Positions 16,483 through 41,377 of a stretch of DNA of 64,000 nt are shown here, piece after piece. This DNA comes from an uncultured Ruficoccus sp. GTDB lineage: Bacteria; Verrucomicrobiota; Verrucomicrobiia; Opitutales; Cerasicoccaceae. Below the pieces are notes generated by a model that saw nothing but the letters and a program-made list of their open reading frames with translations, made no database searches and was not told the DNA's origin. The stretch covers positions 672,001 through 736,000 of the forward strand of contig OZ223481.1 in assembly GCA_965140785.1 (NCBI GenBank), written 5' to 3'. Both the position numbers and the translations under genes were made by a program. The number at the start of each line of letters is the position of its first letter. Positions within the stretch are counted from its first letter, which is position 1.

Positions 16483-17649
16483 TCACGCCGGAGGCAGGCG
16501 GCTGATGATATCGTCGCGGTTGGCGTGAAAGATCGCTTCCTCACGGGTGATGACGCCTTCCTCGCACAGGTTGACCAACTGGCGCTCCAGCGTTATCATG
16601 CCGACCTCGGCGCTGGTTTCCATCGCCGAGTAAACCTGGGCGAGCTTGGCGGTGCGCAGGAAGTTGCCCATCTGCGGAGTGTTGCGGAAGACCTCCATGG
16701 CCACCGCGCGGCCATTGCCGTCGGCGCGGGGGACGAGCTTCTGGCTGAGCACGTAGGAGAGGCTGAAGGAGAGCTGCGTGCACAGTTCGCGCTCCCGGTC
16801 GGAGGGGAACATGTCGATCAGACGGGTCAGCGCGCCGATGCAGTCGCGGGTGTGCAGCGTGGCGAAAACGAGGTGGCCGGTTTCGGCGGCGGTGAGGGTG
16901 AGGGCGGCGGTTTCGAGGTCGCGGATTTCACCGACGAGGATGATGTCCGGGTCCTCGCGCAACGCGCTGCGCAGCCCCGCCGAAAAGGACGAGGTGTGCA
17001 TGCCCACCTCCCGCTGGGAAATGAGCGAGCGGTCGCTTTTAAAGATGTACTCGATCGGGTCCTCCAGCGTGATGATGCGCAGTGAGCGGGTGCGGATGAT
17101 CGCGTGCAGCAGGCTGGCGATGGTGGTGGACTTACCGCTGCCGGTGACCCCGGAGACGATGACCAGCCCCTGGCGCATGCCCACGATGCGCTGCCAGATA
17201 CTGTCGTAGGGGAAGCCGACCTCGGAAATTTCGGGGATACGCGGAGGGAGCAGCCGGATGACCGCAGCCAGGCCGGTGCTGTCCCGAAAGGCGTTGATGC
17301 GGTAGCTGTAGGTGCCTTCGGGCAGATCCAGCGCGTAGCCGCAGTCGATGTCATCCATCAGGTTCTGCTGCATGTGTGCCCGGTCGGACTCGGACAGCAG
17401 GGGGTAGATCAGCGCCTCGGCCAGCTCCTGGGTGAGCACCTCTCCCCCGGGGATGGAGTGGAGGTCCTCGTCCATGCGGAAGCGCACTGGCTGGCCCACC
17501 TTGAGGTGAAAGTCCGAGATGCGCGGCAGCCCGTTGCTCATGTACTCCGGATCAATCGCGCTGCTGAGCAAGTCCACGATGCTGTAGCGCGTGTCGTTGG
17601 CGCTATAGACTTTGTTCTCGAGGTCGTAGGTGGGCGGAGGCGTGGACAT
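16483..17649 (-). CDS. pilT: PilT/PilU family type IV pilus ATPase
   Basis: GVTGSGKSTT, TLEDPIE, LREDPDIILVGEIRD, AETGHLVFATLH. Confidence 0.85.
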   Translation of the reverse strand: MSTPPPTYDLENKVYSANDTRYSIVDLLSSAIDPEYMSNGLPRISDFHLKVGQPVRFRMDEDLHSIPGGEVLTQELAEALIYPLLSESDRAHMQQNLMDDIDCGYALDLPEGTYSYRINAFRDSTGLAAVIRLLPPRIPEISEVGFPYDSIWQRIVGMRQGLVIVSGVTGSGKSTTIASLLHAIIRTRSLRIITLEDPIEYIFKSDRSLISQREVGMHTSSFSAGLRSALREDPDIILVGEIRDLETAALTLTAAETGHLVFATLHTRDCIGALTRLIDMFPSDRERELCTQLSFSLSYVLSQKLVPRADGNGRAVAMEVFRNTPQMGNFLRTAKLAQVYSAMETSAEVGMITLERQLVNLCEEGVITREEAIFHANRDDIISRLPPA

Positions 17650-19281: not shown

Positions 19282-20226
19282 ATGCAACCCCTCATTCTCG
19301 TCATCGGTAGCTACAATCAGGATCTCTTCTGGCAAATCCCCGCTTTCCCCGCGCCCGGCCAGACCTGTGTGGGCGCTTTTAGCACACTGCCCGGCGGCAA
19401 GGGTTCCAATCAGGCCGTGGCCATTGCCCGGTTGGGCGTGCCGACCGCCTTTTGCGGCTCAGTGGGGGAGGACACCTTTGGCCGGGCGCTGCCGGCGTTT
19501 TACCGCAGCGAAGGGATCGAGGATCATCTTGTTTACAAAAAAGACCAGCCCACCGGAAATGCCGCCATATGGGTCAACGCCGAGGGCGAAAACCAGATCG
19601 TCATCTCCGCCGGGGCGAACGGCTCGCTGCAACCGGCAGACATCCCGCTGCCGCTGCTGGGGCAGGTCCGCCTGCTCGTCTGCCAGAACGAAAGCTGCCC
19701 GTCGACCACTGCCTGGGCCTTTGAACAGGCGCGCGCCAATGGCGTGACAACCGTGCTCAACCCCGCACCCATGCGGGCGGATTTTCCCTTCTCACTCCTG
19801 CGCCACACGGACGTCCTCGTGCCGAACGAAAGCGAATTCGCCGAATTGCTCGTGCGACTGGGGGAGGCGCCGTCGCCGACTTTTGACGCCGACAGCGTGG
19901 CCGCACTTTCCGCCGAGGAAATGCACGGGCTGTGCCGTAGACTCGGTGTGCCCACGGTGATCGTTACCCTCGGGCGACGCGGGTCGTTTGTCGATCAGGC
20001 GAGCGGTTTTACGCAGGTGCCCGCGCACAGCGGCGTGGAGGCGGTCGATACGACCGGAGCCGGAGACGCCTTTATCGGCGGGCTCTGCGCCCACCTGGTT
20101 GAAAAAGCCCAAGGCCCCGTCGCTGCCGCCCGCTATGCCAGCGCCGTGGCCGCCCTGTCTGTGACGAAAAAAGGCGCAACTCCTGCCATGCCCACCCGCG
20201 CCGAGGTGGAGGCGTTTTTGGGCTAG
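19282..20226 (+). CDS. rbsK: ribokinase
   Basis: GGKGSNQA, LNPAP, PNESE, DTTGAGDAFIG. Confidence 0.9.
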   Translation: MQPLILVIGSYNQDLFWQIPAFPAPGQTCVGAFSTLPGGKGSNQAVAIARLGVPTAFCGSVGEDTFGRALPAFYRSEGIEDHLVYKKDQPTGNAAIWVNAEGENQIVISAGANGSLQPADIPLPLLGQVRLLVCQNESCPSTTAWAFEQARANGVTTVLNPAPMRADFPFSLLRHTDVLVPNESEFAELLVRLGEAPSPTFDADSVAALSAEEMHGLCRRLGVPTVIVTLGRRGSFVDQASGFTQVPAHSGVEAVDTTGAGDAFIGGLCAHLVEKAQGPVAAARYASAVAALSVTKKGATPAMPTRAEVEAFLG

Positions 20227-20457
20227 TGCCTATTCAGATAAACGAAAAAGCTCAATTTCAGAACGAAAAGACACATTTCAGCCGCTTTGAGCGTTTCTGG
20301 CGGATTGATTGATGAAGAACAGGGTAATTTTAATTTATGCTACGACCGCAGAGGCTCGTGAGCGTGTGCTTGACAATATACGTTATAATATAAATCATTA
20401 TAGGGTGAATGAGTATAATGATGCGCTTAGTTCATTCTCTTCAAGATGTAATTAAAT

Positions 20458-20724
20458 ATGGTCCAAATATATATATACTTTTCGTCTTTTGTTTTAATTG
20501 TCATTGTTTCAATCTATTTGGCCTTTAAGTCTGAATACGGTATTGCAATTATATTGTTTTCTATGATTTTTTTTCCAGCGATAGAGCAGTATGATATTGA
20601 TTATAATTTCATAGGTATGAAGCACATTCAATATTTGCTAATTGAGCGGGTTTTTGTTTTGATTGGATGCTTGTTGGTGGTTCATAAGGTTATAGGTTTA
20701 AGTGGGTTAAGGAATGATGTGTAA
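20458..20724 (+). CDS. small AT-rich hypothetical membrane protein
   Basis: 88-aa hydrophobic ORF in a low-GC patch. Confidence 0.4.
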   Translation: MVQIYIYFSSFVLIVIVSIYLAFKSEYGIAIILFSMIFFPAIEQYDIDYNFIGMKHIQYLLIERVFVLIGCLLVVHKVIGLSGLRNDV

Positions 20725-20912
20725 GTTTGTGAATGCATTTTCCGTCTTGTTTTTATTTTAACTTGCATTTATACTTTTGGCCAGTCCGACCTAACGTGGA
20801 TGGTGGTAGGGGAGAACCGTGTGGCTACGTATGAACAGCGGGTGGGGCGGAATCTAACAGGCCCTAGAGTATCATTAGTTTAAAAGCGCACCGCAATGGG
20901 AGGTTTCTCTGT

Positions 20913-22133
20913 TTACTGCTGCGTCAGGCGCAACTGGTAAAAGATCGCCTGGCCCGGAGCGGGGGCGTCGGTTTCGCTCCAGCGATACAGCGTGTGTGCA
21001 TCGCTGCTGCCGAGGGTTTCCACGCCTGCGCTCCAGGCAGAGGAGCCGGTCTTGGTCGCGACTTCGGACCAGGTTCCGGCGGTCAAATCATACGTGCGCC
21101 AAATGGCGTAGGTAACGTCCGGGCGGGCGGGTTCGGGCAGTTCGAGCTGGAAGCCGGGGACGCCGCCATCGCTTACGGCGCTGGGCAGGCCACTGCCGGT
21201 TGAGCCGTCGTCGATGCCGAGCGCGTAGCGGACGCCGTTGGGCAGGGCGGCGGGCGTGGTGCTTTCGGCGAATCCGATGCCGGTGAGGCCGTCGGCCCAG
21301 AGCCAGTTGTCATACTTTTCCACGACAACGGTCGTCATGCGAAAGGTGACGGCGTAGTCACCCGGCTGGGTGAAAGCCCAGTTGCAGTGATGGTGCCAGC
21401 CGGCGGCGAGGTAGATGCAGTCGTCCGCGTCGATGCCATCGGAGGTGGCCATGTAAACACTCGGGGGAGCGCCGGCGTTGCCAAAGTTGAAGAGCGTGAA
21501 CTCGCCGCCCGTGGGGCCGGTCACCTTTACCAGTTCGAGGCGAACGAATTTATCGGTACTGCCCGCGCCGATGGCGGGGGCTCCGGGGTTCCAGGGGACC
21601 AGTTGCGGGTCTTCCTCGGAATCATCGGCAACACGGAGGCCGGGATAAATCCAGGTTTGGCCCGGAACTACGTCTTGTTGGACAATCCAGAACTTTTGCC
21701 CGACTTCGGCTCCGATGAAGCCGAAGCCGGCATCGATGCTCGCCTGCCCCATGATCTGCCCGCAAGCCTCGTTGAAGTACAGGTAGGCTTCGTCCGGGGT
21801 GTAGTACAGGTCGTCTGCCGGGTTGTCCGGCTCTGAGAGGTTGGCCACGGCGATGAACGGGTTGCCCGCGCCGCCGACGTAGGAAATATTCAGGTCCACA
21901 TGCAGGCCGTCCAGCTTTTCCCGCCCGGCCTGCTCGGTCGTAACGCCGAAGTAAAAGGTATGCTCGGAACTGGTTACGGTCAGGCCTTGGGCTTGCGCGT
22001 ATCCAAAGCTGGATACAATCATGCCGATTGTGAGCGCCAACCGTCCGATCATTCCGCGCAGGTGCGAAAACCGGGAGCGGCGAGGGCCGGTGACGCGATG
22101 GGGAGAGCGGTGGATGTCGGTGGACGTGTTCAT
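20913..22133 (-). CDS. secreted protein with TIGR03769/choice-of-anchor-M-like His domain
   Basis: HVDL...VRLELVKVTGPTGGEFTLF...HHHCNWAFTQPGDYAVTF; ATGA overlap with the upstream prepilin; true start could be ~22052. Confidence 0.75.
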   Translation of the reverse strand: MNTSTDIHRSPHRVTGPRRSRFSHLRGMIGRLALTIGMIVSSFGYAQAQGLTVTSSEHTFYFGVTTEQAGREKLDGLHVDLNISYVGGAGNPFIAVANLSEPDNPADDLYYTPDEAYLYFNEACGQIMGQASIDAGFGFIGAEVGQKFWIVQQDVVPGQTWIYPGLRVADDSEEDPQLVPWNPGAPAIGAGSTDKFVRLELVKVTGPTGGEFTLFNFGNAGAPPSVYMATSDGIDADDCIYLAAGWHHHCNWAFTQPGDYAVTFRMTTVVVEKYDNWLWADGLTGIGFAESTTPAALPNGVRYALGIDDGSTGSGLPSAVSDGGVPGFQLELPEPARPDVTYAIWRTYDLTAGTWSEVATKTGSSAWSAGVETLGSSDAHTLYRWSETDAPAPGQAIFYQLRLTQQ

Positions 22134-22834
22134 CGTTGCGGGGGCTGGGCTGGGTTGACGCCGCGGGCGAAAATTTCTTTAAGTTTACTGGCGAGCATAT
22201 AGTCCACGTGACCGTCGGCGTAGAGGTAGTTGGCCCCGCCGCGGTGGCGGTCGGGCTGGATGTCCAGCCGCGCGTAGGCGTAGCCGTTAGCCCCGGTCCA
22301 GGTGCGCGAGTGGGTGTGGTCGGAGTTGACAGTGACTGGGCGGTTGTCGGCACCGGTGAAGACCGTGATTGTGCGGGCGGGATTGGGCAGCTGCATGAGA
22401 TTGGTATAGTCCTCGTTGACTTCAAACTGGCCGGTGGCGAAGTTGAAGCTCTTGCTGGTCACGGCCACGTACTCGTTCATGACGTAGCTGGAGGAGCCTT
22501 TTTCGAGGCGCTCGTCAGCCTTCGGGTCGCCGGGGCAGATGCGGATCGCATCCACGTTGCCGGTGTAGGGGGCGAGGGTTTGAATCCACGACTTGCTGGC
22601 GGCGGTGTCATGGGTGGTCTTCGGGAACTGACCGCGATTGGCTTGGCAAAACAGCGTGATACCGGTGCCGATTTGGCGCAGGTTGGAGGCGCACTGGGTC
22701 TGACGGGCCATGTCCCGGGAGGAGGACAGTCCGGCATGAACGAGGCAGGCCAGCACCGCCAAAATGGCAATGCCGGCCAGCAATTCGACCAGGCTGAAGG
22801 CGCCTGGTCGGTTTTTACTCAAGCCACTGTGCAT
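22130..22834 (-). CDS. prepilin-type N-terminal cleavage/methylation protein with H-X9-DG C-terminus
   Basis: GAFSLVELL, CASNLRQIG, RHRGGANYLYADGH. Confidence 0.88.
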   Translation of the reverse strand: MHSGLSKNRPGAFSLVELLAGIAILAVLACLVHAGLSSSRDMARQTQCASNLRQIGTGITLFCQANRGQFPKTTHDTAASKSWIQTLAPYTGNVDAIRICPGDPKADERLEKGSSSYVMNEYVAVTSKSFNFATGQFEVNEDYTNLMQLPNPARTITVFTGADNRPVTVNSDHTHSRTWTGANGYAYARLDIQPDRHRGGANYLYADGHVDYMLASKLKEIFARGVNPAQPPQR

Positions 22835-22838
22835 CGGT

Positions 22839-23610
22839 TCAGGTCAACGATCGATTTACGGGGCGTGAGCCGCGAGCGCCGAAGCGACGGCGCAGCAGGA
22901 CCACCCCGAGGCAGGCGGCCCCGGCCATGGCGGCATAGGTGGACGGTTCGGGCACGACATTAAAGGTGTAGGTGGCGGTATCGCTTTGCAGGATGCCCTC
23001 GATGGTGCCGGTCACCGTGAACTCCAGCTCATAGACGCCCGCCTCGGTGAAGCCCCAGTTGACGTGCTGGTGACCGGAAATGCCGAGGTCCAGCGTGATG
23101 GCGTCGGCGGCGCTGATGCCGTCGGCGGTGCTCATGAAAAAGGTCGGCGTGAAGCCGCCCACCCAAACCGAGAATTCGCCTGAGGCGGGCATGTTTGCCC
23201 CTACCAGGGTGAGCGTGAGGGTATTGTCGTCGAAAGTTCCGAGCGTGATTTCCTCGCCGCCGACTCCGAGGTACGGCGCGTTCAGGTCCGCCGCGCCGCC
23301 TGCCCCGAGGTTGCTATCGGGCAGGTACCAGTAGTTTCTCACCCGCGCTGACACCGAGCGGGTCCCAGGCGCTGCCGCTGGGGCGGCCGCCGTTGCTATT
23401 GACAAAGGCGTAGCTGCTTTGCGGCACGACGATGACGGCCTCGTCGGGCGCGTATTCGGTTTCGGTGGATTCGTCGTGGACGTGCAGCTCCAGTTCGGTG
23501 CCTTCGCCCAGGCCGAGATCCATGTGCCCGGAGGTGAGGTTGACCGCTCCCTGAGAGATGCTGACAGAAATAAGGGCGCCCAGCCCGATCAGTAAGGTAG
23601 ATGACTTCAT
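22839..23610 (-). pseudogene. PEP-CTERM protein with TIGR03769/choice-of-anchor-M-like domain, frameshifted near 23336 (possibly assembly error)
   Basis: Signal peptide + GHMDL..LHVHDE in ORF 23314..23619; GHQHVNWGFTEAGVYELEF and VPEPSTYAAMAG...RRR in ORF 22839..23405. Confidence 0.8.
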
Positions 23611-23622
23611 GGGGGGCAAAAA

Positions 23623-23672
23623 TGCAACAACCTTGCATTAGCCGTCAAGGCTTTTAATGCAACTATATTGCA
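23623..23672. promoter_or_regulatory. two TGCAA-N5-TTGCA palindromes (putative Zur-type operators) flanking a minus-strand TTGACG -35
   Basis: TGCAAcaaccTTGCA 23623-23637 and TGCAActataTTGCA 23658-23672; cgtcaa at 23643-23648. Confidence 0.7.
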
Positions 23673-23731
23673 ACAAACAAATCTTCCGCCCGTTATCCCG
23701 ATTTCAACCAGCAATCATAAAATACCCATTT

Positions 23732-23808
23732 CCCGCGAAGTCACGCGAAGGAACACGAAGTGAGTCACTCCCTCATCGACTTTGCGTATCTTCGCGTGAC
23801 TTCGCGGG
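23732..23808. repeat. 19-bp perfect inverted repeat with 10-nt internal periodicity
   Basis: cccgcgaagtcacgcgaag / cttcgcgtgacttcgcggg. Confidence 0.8.
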
Positions 23809-23984
23809 CCATCTCTTTATCGATATACTTGAAAACGGTATTATCCAGCCCGCTACGCTCCCAGCCGCCTGGCGAACCTTCAACACATTTCCCCACTGAG
23901 TGCGACAGATTAAAGCGAAAGTGCTCTAGTTTTTATTTTACTAAAAAATCTGGTGTATCCATCCATGAATACACAATCAGCCAA

Positions 23985-24068
23985 CCAATGACCAATGACC
24001 AATGACCAATGACCAATGACCAATGACCAATGACCAATGACCAATGACCAATGACCAATGACCAATGA
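23985..24068. repeat. heptamer tandem repeat (CCAATGA)12
   Basis: 12 perfect copies counted directly. Confidence 0.95.
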
Positions 24069-24071
24069 CGC

Positions 24072-25097
24072 TTAAGGCTGGGCGCGCGCGGAGGCGGATC
24101 CGAGCTCGGCTTCGACTTCGGCCCGTGCCTCCTGAAGGGAGGGGCGTTCAACAGTGGCGAGTACTTGGCGGGCCTCGTCGGTGCGGCCCATTTTTATGAG
24201 CACCCGTGCTTCTTGCAGGTGGATGAGGTCGAGCTTGAGCGGATCGGTGACGCCCTTGCCGAGGATGCGCCACTGGTTGAGGGCGTCCTGCCAGTCGGGG
24301 TCTTCCACCTCGAAGAAAGCCTCGGCGTAGCGGATGTGGTAGTCGCGATTGGCCGGGGCGAGCTGAGAGGCGCTGTGAAAGGCGTCGAGCATGTTGCGAT
24401 CGAGCGTCTCGGGCTCGAAGATACCTTTGTCGATGTAAAACTTACGGTAGCGCGAGAGCAGTTCGCCCAGTTCGTAGCGGTAGAGGGGCTCTTCGGGTTC
24501 GAGGTCGATGGCGGCGAGGTAGTAGGGCAGGGCGAGGGCGTACTCCCCCTCCTCGGCGAGGTAGTTGCCGATCTGTTGCTTGGCCACGGCGAGGTTAGGG
24601 TCGAGCATATTGGCCTTCATGAAGGCCTTGTTGGCCGCTTTAGTCTCACCGATGCTGCGCAGGAATTTCCCGTAGAGCAGGTAGCCGTAGACGTACTCGG
24701 GATTGTCGAGGAGGAAGGAGTCGTACTCGGTTGCGATGACCTGGAGGCGACGTTCGTACTCGGCCTCGCTGCGGTGGGCGGAGTTCGCCGCCATTTCTTC
24801 AAAGAGCGCGTCCTGGCTTTCGAGGATGTCGATGAGGCGGGCGTCGGAGAGGGTTTCGCGATAGGGCTCATGCTCGCCCTCGGTACTGGCGGCGTCGGTG
24901 GTGGTGGCGGCTCCCTGGGCGGTCGGGGTGTCGTCCGTTTTTTCTTCTTCGCTGGGGCCGAAGAGCCCGTCGTAAATGTCGTCAAAAAAATCTGCGCGGG
25001 CCGCTGTGCCGGTGCCCAGCCACAGAGTCAGCGCCAGTATCAGGAGTTGGCAGCCGGTGAAAAAACGGGCCGGGTGGTGACGCGTGTTGCAGTGCAT
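24072..25097 (-). CDS. secreted tetratricopeptide repeat protein
   Basis: Signal peptide; TPR-like helices (YLLYGKFL..AFMKANMLDPN; YYLAAIDLEPEEPLYRYELG). Confidence 0.8.
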   Translation of the reverse strand: MHCNTRHHPARFFTGCQLLILALTLWLGTGTAARADFFDDIYDGLFGPSEEEKTDDTPTAQGAATTTDAASTEGEHEPYRETLSDARLIDILESQDALFEEMAANSAHRSEAEYERRLQVIATEYDSFLLDNPEYVYGYLLYGKFLRSIGETKAANKAFMKANMLDPNLAVAKQQIGNYLAEEGEYALALPYYLAAIDLEPEEPLYRYELGELLSRYRKFYIDKGIFEPETLDRNMLDAFHSASQLAPANRDYHIRYAEAFFEVEDPDWQDALNQWRILGKGVTDPLKLDLIHLQEARVLIKMGRTDEARQVLATVERPSLQEARAEVEAELGSASARAQP

Positions 25098-25281
25098 GGA
25101 AAAAGCGGATTGTGGATTCAGGCTGGTAATCGAGACCCCGCATTGTACCGGCGGCAAGCGTAAACGCCCCGGCGGGTGGTGGTGGGGGAGGTCCGGATTG
25201 TTCGGCCAGGATGGATAAAACAGGGTCGTGCGGCGGTTTGTTCCCTGGATTGCGACGCACGGGTTACGAGGGCCTGTTGCG

Positions 25282-32824: not shown

Positions 32825-33558
32825 TTAAGTCCGGGCGTCTTTGCCCTCCCCATACCCCCATTTCGTACCGGGGTAGGCCGAAAGCGCAAACACAATGGTG
32901 GAAATAGTTACCGCCAGGCTGACAATCGCCCAGGTTTGTTCGTGGCCGGGGTACTCGATCAGGACCAGCGTAGCATAAAATAAAGCGGCCACCCCGATCG
33001 GGCCGAACCAACCGGCGAAGATCGCGTCCCGGCGCGAGAATTCCGGGATGGCGGGCCGGAGCACGAGCAGGGCGGGCAGGCGACGCAGGATGATCATGAT
33101 CGGCAGGCCGAGCCACAGGGCGGCGGGCTGGCTCTGGATGAGCCCGGCCCAGTCGGCCCAGGGCAGCATCGTGCCCAACAGCACGAACACCGGCACGATG
33201 AACAGCCGCTCCATCATGGATTGAACCCCGTGGCCAGCGCGCACATCAGCAGCATGCCGCCGCCGGTCAGGCTGAGGAAGCCCCGCAGGTGCCGCCGCAG
33301 GAAGCCGGGTGGCACGCGCATGGCCGCCGCCATCAGGGCCAGGCCGATACTGAAGCGGGCAGTCTGGTGCAGGATCCGGTACGGGTGCTCCCAGCTTAAC
33401 GGCTCAGCCCAGCCGAGCAGTTGGGGGCCGATCAGGACGCCGGCCAGAAGCGCGATCAGGGGCTCCGACAGGAGGGAGACCTCGAGGGCTCGTTTTATCA
33501 GACCCAGGCTGAGCAGTAGCAGGGCGGCACAGGCGAGTATGATGTTGATTTCATGCAT
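32825..33558 (-). pseudogene. cation:proton antiporter (CPA1-like) remnant with internal deletion
   Basis: N-terminal part (LSEPLIALLAGVLIGP) joined out of frame near 33230 to C-terminal part (GWFGPIGVAALFY); about 245 codons, well short of the ~400 aa typical of the family. Confidence 0.75.
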
Positions 33559-38884: not shown

Positions 38885-39703
38885 TCATTGTCCCTGTGGG
38901 CGCAGCAGCCGATAGACCCACGCCAGTAGAAAGCACCCGGTGGCCACCAGCACGATGCAGGCCCCGGAAGAAACGTCGAAGTGGAAGGACAGCAGCAGCC
39001 CGACAAATCCGGCCAGCACGGAGACGGCGGAGGCCAGCGCCATGATGCCCGAGACGCTTTTCATGATCAGGGCGGCGCAGGCGGCGGGGGTGATGAGCAA
39101 GGCGATGGTCAGCAGTGCGCCCACCACCTGCACGGCGGAGACGACGGCGAGCGAGGCCAGCAGCAGCACCAGCAGGCGCATGCGGTTGGGCTCGATCCCG
39201 ATGACGCGGGCGTACTCGGGGTCGAGCGAGGTCAGCTCCAGCTCCTTGTGCCACAGGGCCAGGATGAGGACGATGATCACCGTGACGGTCGCCACCAGCG
39301 CGAGGTCGCCCATGGTCACCCCGAGCACGCTGCCAAAGACGATGGCCTCGAAGTCCCGGTACGAGCTGGCCATGCTCATTAAAAGAATCCCCAGCGCGAA
39401 CATCCCGGCCAGCACGACGCCGATCGCGGTGTCTTCGCGCACGCGCCGGTGGGAGGACAGGACTGCCACGCCGAGCGCGGTGGCCAGGCTCGCTCCGAGC
39501 GCCCCGAAAAACAAATTGAAGCCCTTGAGGAAGGCGAAGGCCACGCCCGGCAGGATCGTGTGCCCGAGCGCCCCGCCGAGGAAGGCCATCCGGCGCAGGA
39601 CCACATAGGTGCCGACCAGAGCACAGTTGAGCCCGGCCAGCAGGACGGCGGCGAGCGCCTTTTGCAGGAAGGCGTAGGAAAACGGTTCGGTCAGCCAGTC
39701 CAT
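38885..39703 (-). CDS. znuB: Zn/Mn ABC transporter permease
   Basis: VGTYVVLRRMAF, GHTILPG, EDTAIG, FGSVLGV, LLITPAA. Confidence 0.88.
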   Translation of the reverse strand: MDWLTEPFSYAFLQKALAAVLLAGLNCALVGTYVVLRRMAFLGGALGHTILPGVAFAFLKGFNLFFGALGASLATALGVAVLSSHRRVREDTAIGVVLAGMFALGILLMSMASSYRDFEAIVFGSVLGVTMGDLALVATVTVIIVLILALWHKELELTSLDPEYARVIGIEPNRMRLLVLLLASLAVVSAVQVVGALLTIALLITPAACAALIMKSVSGIMALASAVSVLAGFVGLLLSFHFDVSSGACIVLVATGCFLLAWVYRLLRPQGQ

Positions 39704-39705
39704 GG

Positions 39706-40431
39706 TCAGTCGGGGGCGACGCGGCCGTTTTCGAGGGTGAGCACGCGGTCGAAATGATCGATGAAGTGCGCGATGTCATGCGTGGCCATGACGACCGTGC
39801 AGCCGCGTTCGCGCAGGCGGTCCAGCGCCTGCCAGATGAGGCCGCGGCTGGTCTCGTCCACGGCGTTAAAGGGTTCGTCGAGCAGGTAGAGCTCGGCCTG
39901 GTGGAGCAGGGTGCGGGCGAGCAGGGCGCGCTGCTGCTGGCCGCCGGAGAGGCTGCCGATCTGCCGTCTGGAATAGGGACTCAGGCCGAGTTGGTCCACG
40001 GCGGCCTCGGCGGCCTTGCGCTGCTGACGCCCGGGGCGGCGGAACCAGCCCAGGCGCACATAGGTGCCGGTCAGCACGAAGCGGCTCAGGTTGATGGGAA
40101 ATTCCCAGTCCAGGCTGCTGCGCTGGGGCAGGTAGGCGACCTCGTGCCGACAGACACCGGGCCGGTGCCCGAGCACGCGGATTTCCCCTTCATAAGGAAG
40201 CAGGCCAGCCAGACATTTTAAGAGAGTGGACTTGCCGGAGCCGTTGTCGCCGACCAGGGCGATGCGTTCACCGCGCCGGACGGAGAGGGAGACGCCGTCA
40301 AGCGCCGCCGGGCCGGTGGTGGCATAGCTCGCACTCACGCCCCCGAGGTGGATAGCGGTGGCGTCCGGGTAATGGCAGCCCCCGCAATTACCCCGGTAGG
40401 AGAGCAGCCCGCTGGCGATTCCTTTACTCAA
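39706..40431 (-). CDS. znuC: Zn/Mn ABC transporter ATP-binding protein
   Basis: GDNGSGKST, AYLPQR, LSGGQQQR, LLDEP; start uncertain (TTG 40431 overlapping the znuA end). Confidence 0.88.
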   Translation of the reverse strand: MSKGIASGLLSYRGNCGGCHYPDATAIHLGGVSASYATTGPAALDGVSLSVRRGERIALVGDNGSGKSTLLKCLAGLLPYEGEIRVLGHRPGVCRHEVAYLPQRSSLDWEFPINLSRFVLTGTYVRLGWFRRPGRQQRKAAEAAVDQLGLSPYSRRQIGSLSGGQQQRALLARTLLHQAELYLLDEPFNAVDETSRGLIWQALDRLRERGCTVVMATHDIAHFIDHFDRVLTLENGRVAPD

Positions 40432-41377
40432 TGTGTCGGCTACTTTGCAGAGAATCGGCGATCGTGTCCACTGTGTAGAGGAAAAGCGATTCATAATCCT
40501 GCGGGCCGTTCACCTCGCGGGCCAGGGAGCCCACGTAAAGGGGTTGGGGAGTGGGCAGGCCGGTTTCGCGGCAGAGCTGTTCGGCCAGGCGGGGATTGGA
40601 GCCGGGGTCGGTGAAGACGGCCCTGACCTGGTCCTGTTTAACCAGCCGAATCAGCCGGGCCATCTGGCGAGCGGAGGGCTCGCCGCTGACGGTGCTGACG
40701 GAGCCCAAAATGGTGGCGGGAATGCGGATGTCGTAGCGCTCGGCGAAGTAGCCCAGATTGTCGTGGTAAGTGATGATGACGCGCTCATCGGAGGGGAGCG
40801 TGGAGAAGCGTTTTATAGCGTACTGGTCGAGCTCCTGAAGGCGTTGCGCCCAGCGTTTTTCATTACGTCGGTAGTCCTCGGCATGGGCGGGGTCGAGCTG
40901 GCAGAGGGCCTCGGTCAGGACTTCGCCCATTTGCCGGACATTATCCGGGTCCATCCAGACGTGGGGATCGTGCTCGCCATGGTCGTGGTGCTCACCGACG
41001 CCGTGGCCGTCGTGGCTGTGTCCATGCTCGTCCTCCTCGGCTTCGTGCAGACTGAGGTGCTCGCTCAGGCTCAGACGGCGTCCCTGAAAGCGGGTGGCGG
41101 CCAACATGTCATCGAGCCAATACTCCAGCCCGGCGCCAATCTCCACCACCAGATCGGCCTCGGCCAGCGTAGCCAGGTCGCGCGGAGCCGCTTCAAAGGC
41201 ATGGATGTCCTGACCGTTTCCGGCCAGCACCGTCAACTCTACCTCGTCACCGGCGATTTGGCGCACCCAGTCGGCGGGCAGGCTGAAGCTGGCCACCACG
41301 CGGAGCTTATCGGCGTGGAGCAGGGTGGTGGAGGCCAGCCCCACCAGGAGCACGGCCAGCATTTTCCAACGTAGCAT
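40424..41377 (-). CDS. znuA: Zn/Mn ABC transporter substrate-binding protein with His-rich loop
   Basis: DIHAFE, EHGHSHDGHGVGEHHDHGEHDPHVW, YHDNLGYF. Confidence 0.88.
   Translation of the reverse strand: MLRWKMLAVLLVGLASTTLLHADKLRVVASFSLPADWVRQIAGDEVELTVLAGNGQDIHAFEAAPRDLATLAEADLVVEIGAGLEYWLDDMLAATRFQGRRLSLSEHLSLHEAEEDEHGHSHDGHGVGEHHDHGEHDPHVWMDPDNVRQMGEVLTEALCQLDPAHAEDYRRNEKRWAQRLQELDQYAIKRFSTLPSDERVIITYHDNLGYFAERYDIRIPATILGSVSTVSGEPSARQMARLIRLVKQDQVRAVFTDPGSNPRLAEQLCRETGLPTPQPLYVGSLAREVNGPQDYESLFLYTVDTIADSLQSSRHIE

Follow-up and report, generated by a model that had tools for sequence, protein, structure and literature searches.

The DNA considered here, called the window, is a stretch of 64,000 nucleotides from the assembly of an uncultured, marine-type Ruficoccus sp. 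of the Verrucomicrobiota (GenBank GCA_965140785.1, contig OZ223481.1, positions 672,001 to 736,000 of the forward strand). Three genes, A, B and C, lie on its minus strand and are read in this order, as judged by the coordinates of the open reading frames (ORFs) in the window. The original prediction, made from the letters of the window, described them as a tightly coupled unit for zinc scavenging at the cell surface, placed behind two perfect palindromes. This layout was confirmed. A gap of 4 nt (22835–22838) separates the stop of gene A from the start of gene B, genes B and C overlap by ATGA (22130–22133), and the two perfect TGCAA-N5-TTGCA palindromes are TGCAACAACCTTGCA at 23623–23637 and TGCAACTATATTGCA at 23658–23672. 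The source genome, an assembly of 4,361,983 bp, is denoted G000, the genomes of its relatives are numbered from G001 onward, and fetched loci carry L numbers. The genes of the relatives were found by tblastn and longest-ORF calls.

22839–23619, minus strand: gene A; signal peptide, choice-of-anchor M/TIGR03769 domain and PEP-CTERM tail, split in two frames
23314–23619, minus strand: N-terminal ORF of gene A; 101 amino acids, signal-peptide-like start, motifs GHMDL and LHVHDE
22839–23405, minus strand: C-terminal ORF of gene A; 188 amino acids, GHQHVNW and the PEP-CTERM tail
22130–22834, minus strand: gene B; prepilin-type protein with the class III signal G/FSLVELL, DUF1559 and H-X9-DG, of the DHxH subfamily (D172-H173-T-H175)
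20913–22133, minus strand: gene C; signal peptide, choice-of-anchor M domain (about 51–271) and FnIII/Ig-like C-terminal domain (about 296–406), without a PEP-CTERM tail
23619–23641: operator copy 1 (proximal), AATGCAA-N5-TTGCATT, core 23623–23637; abuts the start of gene A; 25.3 bits, joint third to fourth in the genome
23654–23676: operator copy 2 (distal), core 23658–23672; best matrix score of the genome, 30.3 bits
41404–41426: operator copy 3, 27 nt upstream of the znuA start codon; second-best match of the genome, 27.7 bits

Gene products and the shared operator

Genes A and C encode proteins with the same kind of domain. With the NCBIfam model NF038134 (choice_anch_M, cut-off 55), the C-terminal part of A scores 67.4 bits and C scores 66.8 bits, and the N-terminal part of A (101 amino acids) alone gives 17.9 bits over profile positions 2–65, as expected for a split gene. 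A hidden Markov model check bore out the TIGR03769 domain that had been proposed for the operon. Gene A reaches 47.9 bits, and gene C reaches 31.0 bits, which is barely past the cut-off of 30.9 and covers 25 of 41 positions. A search of G000 found choice-of-anchor M genes in A and C only. The tail of A (VPEPSTYAAMAGAACLGVVLLRRRF) is recognized by the PEP-CTERM model TIGR02595 (24.6 bits, cut-off 16) and lies slightly below the cut-off of Pfam PF07589 (19.5 vs 20.7 bits). The genome also encodes an exosortase-family gene, which carries the TIGR04178 exosortase/archaeosortase signature at 46.1 bits (cut-off 23; contig C26, 28113–29474); matches to the exosortase model TIGR02602 stay below its cut-off (75.9 vs 105.55). 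The tail and this gene agree with the earlier suggestion that an exosortase would anchor the product of gene A. In our own ORF call, the exosortase-family gene appears as two overlapping ORFs (C26:28113–29752). At C26:30041, between this gene and the gene of an unannotated, secreted-looking protein of 372 amino acids, there is a weak match to the operator, with 20.4 bits and three mismatches in its core.

Gene B passes the cut-offs of the H-X9-DG model TIGR04294 (26.1 bits, cut-off 19), of DUF1559 (Pfam PF07596, 33.8 bits, cut-off 23.3) and of the prepilin motif TIGR02532 (17.0 bits, cut-off 16.3); its score with Pfam N_methyl (19.7) is below the cut-off of 21.2. It is not recognized as a GspG major pseudopilin by TIGR01710 (19.2 bits vs a cut-off of 88.85). 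The profile of gene B matches 59 prepilin-like ORFs in G000, and the DHxH motif is found in gene B only. Against the profile of its own alignment, gene B scores 324.6 bits, and the other paralogues in G000 score at most 112.5. The original prediction had offered a role for an H-X9-DG pilin, and this idea stands for the DHxH subfamily, to which one of the 59 prepilin-like ORFs belongs, and not for H-X9-DG pilins in general. A gene for a PilT-type retraction ATPase (16483–17649) is located 3 kb from the operon and keeps this position in G001 and G002; there is no sign that it serves gene B.

The two perfect palindromes in front of gene A are the sole perfect copies in the whole assembly. When up to one mismatch is allowed, the window contains six matches vs 1.47 expected, and six were reached in none of 100 shuffles. 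A conserved CCTTGAC is located between operator copies 1 and 2, and the layout of two copies with TTGAC between them also occurs in G001, G002 and G003. In the relatives, 30 sites with at most one core mismatch were collected from 15 of 17 fetched loci, where they are mostly paired directly upstream of the module. Locus L036 has no operator site, and the one remote site of L037 was excluded from the 30. The consensus of these sites is TTAATGCAAATAATTTGCATTAA, a palindrome of 21–23 bp, which is the size and symmetry of Fur-family boxes. A sigma-70 consensus scan gave no promoter at the operators, its single match being located elsewhere, and Rfam gave no match in 20200–24300.

A weight matrix was built from the 30 sites of the relatives, with none from G000, and the znuA site was not used in building it. 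The core by which these sites were picked is that of the window, which makes the result partly circular for the core, but not for the flanks or the znuA site. When G000 is ranked with this matrix, the best match belongs to this operon and the second best precedes znuA. The third and fourth places are a tie at 25.3 bits between the proximal copy of the operon and a site before a phosphatidylserine decarboxylase gene. The latter site (C39:180541) lies between the gene of a 165-amino-acid membrane protein and the decarboxylase gene. A similar operator-like site precedes the phosphatidylserine decarboxylase gene in G001 (L077).

The genes around operator copy 3 are the following.

40424–41377, minus strand: znuA; Pfam ZnuA, 255 bits
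39706–40494, minus strand: znuC; Pfam ABC_tran
38885–39703, minus strand: znuB; Pfam ABC-3, 238 bits
41589–41963, minus strand: short Fur-family gene, immediately upstream of znuA; 124 amino acids, Pfam FUR, 66 bits, without CxxC motifs

The ZnuA protein of the window contains a His-, Asp- and Glu-rich loop, and a His-rich loop is the mark of a zinc-specific ZnuA. A Zur regulon would be expected to hold its operator in common with a zinc importer gene. This is what was found in G000, with 27.7 bits before znuA, and the operator precedes znuA in G001, G012 and G013 as well. In G013, further copies stand before a COG0523 (CobW) gene and before a class A gene. In G009, the operator precedes a MerC gene that is divergent to an Rrf2 regulator gene, and another copy is located 262 bp from a Fur-family gene. 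The link to zinc that had been proposed for the operon has thus gained an operator that is common to the operon and znuA in this genome and in three relatives, and that elsewhere occurs before COG0523 or MerC genes and near Fur-family genes. The pattern ATGCAA-N5-TTGCAT (up to one mismatch) has 8, 18, 16, 6 and 16 matches in five relatives vs 3, 2, 4, 5 and 3 for a reversed control. Annotation covered 22 of 64 distinct sites (20 fetched places plus L049 and L059), and 22 ORFs were run through Pfam. Ten of these 22 are without a family, and the operator was also seen before a histidine phosphatase gene and a FitA-like gene. We read the operator as a Zur-type box, a prediction from its sequence and position.

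The 124-amino-acid Fur-family protein is one of two candidates for the regulator of this operator. G000 has six Fur-family genes. Where Fur genes adjoin the module elsewhere, their best match in G000 is the paralogue C48:285548–286027 in 8 of 13 cases, and forms of 124 amino acids adjoin the module in L113 and L123. Matches of NCBIfam models to the 124-amino-acid protein are weak and mixed.

Conservation of the module and the modelled B–C complex

Close homologues carry the labels Ruficoccus sp., Puniceicoccales and Verrucomicrobiota. A choice-of-anchor M match is present in 18 of 61 genomes (G000 and 60 relatives), including all 15 other genomes of the same family, and a gene B orthologue adjoins the choice-of-anchor M gene in 13 of the 17 fetched loci. 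The complete order of tetratricopeptide repeat (TPR) gene, A, B and C is kept in G001 and G002. Genes that are located beside the module in relatives include those of COG0523 GTPases (G009, G013, G014), MerC-family membrane proteins (G012, G013, G014) and TonB-dependent receptors (G007, G026). The operon of G008 consists of a choice-of-anchor M gene, a prepilin gene and, as the last one, a Fur-family gene. In G007, two choice-of-anchor M genes are divergent to a TonB-dependent receptor gene, which is followed by a Fur-family gene.

A wider scan with the gene B alignment, restricted to one genome per species, kept 78 loci from Verrucomicrobiota and Planctomycetota and a few bins labelled otherwise. 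A B-like ORF is present in 77 of the 78, and 68 of these 77 have the DHxH motif correctly placed. A choice-of-anchor M ORF accompanies 50 of the 68 DHxH loci, within 400 bp in 48 of them, and none of the nine loci without DHxH. Similarly, genes for ZnuA, ABC-3, COG0523, Fur or MerC proteins lie within 6 kb in 20 of the 68 DHxH loci vs none of the nine others. The operator matrix exceeds 18 bits in 28 of the 78 loci. The context labels come from our own seed profiles, and Pfam confirmed 35 of 35 ORFs. These loci are kin and not independent, so the counts describe a pattern and are not a statistic. NF038134 was found in all 48 choice-of-anchor M ORFs tested, in 43 of them over the cut-off. In some lineages of the Planctomycetes–Verrucomicrobia–Chlamydiae (PVC) bacteria, the module is located directly beside ZnuA, ABC-3, COG0523 or Fur genes, which strengthens the zinc link. 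In L123 (Methylacidiphilales), the order is Fur, B, class A, COG0523, ZnuA. In L124 (Chthoniobacterales), ZnuA and ABC-3 are followed by class A, B, ZnuA and ABC-3, and L113 and L141 are similar. The synteny that was to be checked across Verrucomicrobiota and Planctomycetota was found in both phyla.

The family can grow to large proteins. Giant proteins of 1083 and 1420 amino acids, with five to seven tandem choice-of-anchor M domains, occur beside DHxH prepilins, and in other lineages the domain is combined with Calx-beta-like and tandem-95 repeats. The giant and composite proteins come from L089 and L108 (metagenome-assembled genomes of Verrucomicrobiota) and from L106 and L121 (Planctomycetota).

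Conservation of the histidine motifs in orthologues was one of the points on which the original prediction had staked itself, and it held for most of them. Across 15 class C proteins, there is no variation at D80, H247 and H249 and almost none at H78. In class A (18 rows, numbered as in G001), H30, H178 and H180 are nearly invariant. In 14 orthologues of gene B, D172, H173, H175, D207 and H209 are invariant, as are F13, L15, E17 and L19. Thus, the GHxD, HxHxNW and DHxH motifs are invariant or nearly so, but the middle HxH of class A (LHVHDE in gene A) is retained in some rows only. The H-X9-DG motif of gene B corresponds to H197-X9-D207-G208, and its first histidine is not universal, being F in three orthologues. 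Inserts that resemble the zinc-binding loops of ZnuA were observed in two relatives: about 60 residues of His, Asp and Glu in a choice-of-anchor M paralogue of G007 (L030:5572–6753), and HHHEEE in a class A protein of G024 (L036:5482–6372).

The model of gene C (mean pLDDT, the predicted local distance difference test score, 68.7) has a confident beta-rich domain at about 51–271 and a less confident C-terminal beta-sandwich. For the C-terminal domain, VIA-align found weak FnIII-like matches (best Z 5.9). Foldseek searches with the gene C model gave template modelling (TM) scores of at most 0.16, with generic beta-sandwiches throughout, and the class A sequence profile produced one chance-level match among solved structures (E 0.021). 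The model of gene B (pLDDT 88.8) consists of a helix at 15–65 and a compact head. In the fold search, it matched type IV pilins best, although weakly (highest probability 0.98, E 0.2); Foldseek found nothing at E ≤ 0.001.

A complex of the B head (30–234) and the choice-of-anchor M domain of C (48–275) was modelled with our own alignments. The three runs scored 0.81, 0.82 and 0.83, and the controls scored 0.01, 0.00 and 0.00. In a benchmark of this score, the mark is reached by 116 of 157 solved complexes and by 2 of 215 mismatched pairs, which applies here approximately, as own alignments were used. Contact agreement between the runs is at least 85%, and the pLDDT of the partner is at least 80. 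The modelled interface is formed by residues 170–171, 175 and 177–178 of B, around DHTHS, and by residues 77–78 and 243–248 of C; it includes H175 of B and H78, H247 and H248 of C. As no comparable solved complex is known to us, the score seems unlikely to come from the memory of the model. The model supports the binding of B to C, and, together with the conserved adjacency of the two genes, it favours the pilin association that had been proposed.

Interpretation, rival readings and further features of the window

Every part of the original prediction has in silico support, and the interpretation is backed by the sharing of the operator, the synteny across two phyla, the conservation of residues and the complex model. 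The module is probably a low-zinc (Zur-type) regulon unit of PVC bacteria, which captures zinc in the cell envelope. We infer zinc as the ligand, repression by Zur, the locations of the proteins and a hand-over to ZnuA, which would amount to the proposed feeding of ZnuABC. In such a scheme, when zinc becomes scarce, a Fur-family repressor would leave the two operators, which would overlap the promoter, and three secreted proteins would be made. The product of gene A, with its choice-of-anchor M domain and a His/Asp site, would be processed by an exosortase at its PEP-CTERM tail and reach the cell surface. The product of gene C would carry a domain of this kind too, on a stalk that resembles FnIII, and would have no anchor, and the product of gene B would be a pilin-like protein with the invariant DHxH in its head. 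Where B binds the choice-of-anchor M domain, histidines of the one protein would face those of the other, and the two might share a metal site or relay the ion. In the end, the metal would reach periplasmic ZnuA and the ZnuBC importer, which is under the same operator.

Several points weigh against this interpretation. The znuABC genes (38885–41377) are not adjacent to the operon here; they are about 15 kb away. High-scoring operators also precede phosphatidylserine decarboxylase, two sigma-factor and response regulator genes, which have no obvious link to zinc, and the annotated places were hand-picked by eye, with a preference for AT-rich spacers. MerC neighbours could indicate a different metal. 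Among the 68 DHxH loci, 18 are without a choice-of-anchor M gene in the DNA covered, some of them on short contigs. Searches of solved structures gave no clear relative of the choice-of-anchor M domain (the best VIA-align Z of 4.3 was treated as chance). Finally, the regulator is not assignable among six Fur-family genes, of which the one beside znuA is without CxxC motifs. Fur genes next to the module in other lineages are divided in their best match between two paralogues of G000, so that orthology did not single out one regulator.

A more specific form of the zinc-capture interpretation can be offered tentatively, as a possibility that we would not favour over doubt. The DHxH prepilin could be the functional end of a pilus or pseudopilus with a choice-of-anchor M protein as its load, the two proteins sharing a zinc site of histidines, and extension and retraction or a piston-like motion could bring zinc from outside or from the outer envelope to periplasmic ZnuA. 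If this is true, a function would be assigned for the first time to a DUF1559/H-X9-DG pilin and to the TIGR03769 domain, and a PVC-wide Zur box, TAATGCAAAT-N-ATTTGCATTA, would be defined.

The likeliest alternative leaves the regulon unchanged and concerns the work of gene B. It could be a cargo-specific pseudopilin by which a type II secretion or type IV pilus machine pushes choice-of-anchor M proteins across the outer membrane; the B–C contact would then serve secretion, and the histidines of B would be structural. The class III signal and pilin-like model of B suit this view, gene C has no anchor of its own, 59 prepilin-like ORFs suggest diversified adaptors, and the adjacency and predicted complex fit a carrier and its cargo equally well as a metal relay. 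Nevertheless, the subfamily has DHxH without exception, the 58 other paralogues lack it, and H175 is placed by the model in the interface beside conserved histidines of the partner, which a pure adaptor would not need. This role of B is rather doubtful as a replacement for the metal-partner role, and the two are not mutually exclusive.

It is unlikely that the module handles manganese, iron, nickel, cobalt or copper, with an operator of a Mur-, Fur- or Nur-type regulator. The identity of Fur-family proteins cannot be read from sequence, as the mixed NCBIfam matches of the 124-amino-acid protein illustrate, MerC-family neighbours occur, and binding proteins of the ZnuA family carry manganese or iron in some systems. 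However, the ZnuA under the same operator has a His-rich loop, COG0523 genes are recurrent beside the module, and no matrix score above 12 bits was found near the feoB gene of the window. In addition, the homologous domains of Corynebacterium respond to zinc and Zur (PMC6711530, as far as its text was available).

The state of gene A raises the question of whether the operon is decaying in this organism. Alignment to the relatives places the frameshift in one extra base of a plus-strand TTT at 23335–23337 (minus strand GAG-AAA-CTAC), where the relatives read ...AGE(N/S)YW... and where gene A is a single frame in G001, G002 and G003. The frameshift noted earlier at 23336 is indeed present in the assembly, but it is absent from a contig of the public run X1 (depth 6.09; 23181–23434), which has one letter fewer at 23335 and restores the frame. 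Run X1 may be the own sample of the assembly; its contig means that the reads do not compel a frameshift and is not independent proof. The contig of a second public run stops at 23336 and gives evidence for neither side. None of the public runs listed for the stretch was an RNA run. The frameshift is probably an assembly error or a minority variant. A genuine frameshift in a module that no longer functions here would agree with the extra base in the assembly, but nothing is broken in genes B and C or in the two operators, the X1 contig crosses the place with its frame restored, and a difference of 1 nt in a short homopolymer is a common assembly error; decay of the operon is, hence, improbable.

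That A and C are ordinary PEP-CTERM surface or matrix proteins for adhesion or floc formation, with a palindrome that serves an unrelated regulator, is very unlikely: PEP-CTERM proteins are often matrix-associated, floc PepA-type matches occur weakly (19.8 bits vs a cut-off of 80) and fold searches show a generic beta-sandwich likeness only, but the operator also precedes znuA in G000, G001, G012 and G013, COG0523, Fur and ZnuABC genes are nearby, the His/Asp residues do not vary and His-rich inserts are present in some relatives.

Some further features of the window were observed. The region at 20230–20912, AT-rich and about 690 bp long, lies between a ribokinase gene and gene C and contains a low-GC ORF of 88 amino acids (20458–20724) without a Pfam match. 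It looks like an insertion, because the ribokinase gene abuts gene C in G001. The heptamer ACCAATG is repeated perfectly in tandem at 23984–24069 (12.3 copies, 100% matches), directly past the stop of the TPR gene (24072–25157, minus strand). This array is upstream of the distal operator, at a distance of about 310 bp. As its unit length is not a multiple of three, the length of the array could vary by slippage. A Na+/H+ exchanger at 32825–33558 is represented by two short ORFs that cover only profile positions 255–368 and 3–89, and it may be a broken or mis-assembled gene.

Comparison with known systems

Zinc scavenging beyond the cytoplasmic membrane is known mainly from small zincophores and TonB-dependent receptors and, since 2024, from the exoprotein ZepA.

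The actinobacterial anchored-repeat system (TIGR03769/TIGR03772/TIGR03773) contains a homologous domain. Genes A and C pass the cut-offs of TIGR03769 and NF038134 and give partial matches to TIGR03772 and TIGR03773. The TIGR03773 matches (46.9 bits for A and 36.7 bits for C vs 190.3 for a full-length match) indicate a domain in common and not a protein family. The system is located beside a ZnuA-type ATP-binding cassette (ABC) transporter and is repressed by zinc through Zur. In Corynebacterium diphtheriae, this applies to the anchored-repeat ABC cluster troA-dip0445 and to the surface proteins CmrA and CmrA2, whose function, like that of the cluster, is stated to be unknown in the text available (PMC6711530). 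For Gardnerella in a genital-tract medium, the ten genes with the strongest induction include two choice-of-anchor M genes and the anchored-repeat transporter, according to the part of the source at hand (PMC11979175). The actinobacterial system differs from the module in its sortase/LPXTG anchoring, its monoderm cells, the lack of a pilin partner and another Zur box. No published function for the TIGR03769/choice-of-anchor M domain was found in the literature searched.

By analogy and not by homology, the known system nearest to the module is ZepA (All3515) of Anabaena sp. PCC 7120. This exoprotein is under Zur control, binds 1.48 zinc per monomer and aids zinc uptake, according to the available text (PMC10957091). 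Like gene A, it has a signal peptide, a beta-rich body and a PEP-CTERM tail, and it also has a cluster of three conserved histidines and a Zur palindrome over its promoter (PMC10957091). Its neighbours are COG0523, TonB-dependent transporter, ZnuA and Fur-family genes, much like those of the module, and homologues occur in PVC bacteria (PMC10957091). The motif H-X2-9-H-[FY]-H given for ZepA (PMC10957091) does not fit gene A, which has H-X13-H-V-H and a distant HxHxNW; relatives of gene A have H-X12-HLH or H-X17-HYH at this place. Membership in the ZepA family is defined there by at least 35% identity over at least 75% coverage, and Lacipirellula limnantheis is said to hold a homologue (PMC10957091). 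The L. limnantheis genome gave no NF038134 match at E ≤ 0.01, and the class A profile hit PEP-CTERM tails only. The candidate relation of gene A as a ZepA homologue was rejected by this indirect genome test, with the ZepA sequence itself outside the comparison. A word-based protein search with the class A alignment returned 25 matches, none of them cyanobacterial. In the main text of the ZepA paper, as available, the words “pilin” and “prepilin” appear nowhere (PMC10957091).

Gene B resembles the DUF1559/H-X9-DG prepilins of Planctomycetota and Verrucomicrobiota in its N-terminal methylation motif, in its DUF1559 region and in its H-X9-DG C-terminus. Unlike them, it belongs to a distinct orthologous group, in which DHxH never varies, a choice-of-anchor M gene is the fixed neighbour and the operator is present. 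Its class III signal and its small head behind a long N-terminal helix are as in GspG and type IV pilins, but the operon contains no genes for secretion or pilus assembly. In the accessible parts of the literature searched, there is no function in print for DUF1559 proteins and no description of the three-gene module or of a link between DUF1559 and zinc.

The finding points to a second protein-based system of zinc capture, unrelated to ZepA, across Verrucomicrobiota and Planctomycetota. It gives candidate roles within two large groups, namely to the TIGR03769/choice-of-anchor M domain, for which strong induction is also seen in Corynebacterium and Gardnerella, and to one subfamily of the very numerous DUF1559/H-X9-DG prepilins. 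It also supplies a candidate Zur operator for the PVC superphylum, for which one Luteolibacter palindrome was the only one found described in the text available (PMC10957091). A pilin-like protein in metal handling, as suggested here, would be a new job for pilin machinery. The module is best filed under a known kind of system, Zur-controlled zinc capture in the envelope, and what is new in it is the combination of an uncharacterised choice-of-anchor M domain with a dedicated DHxH prepilin.

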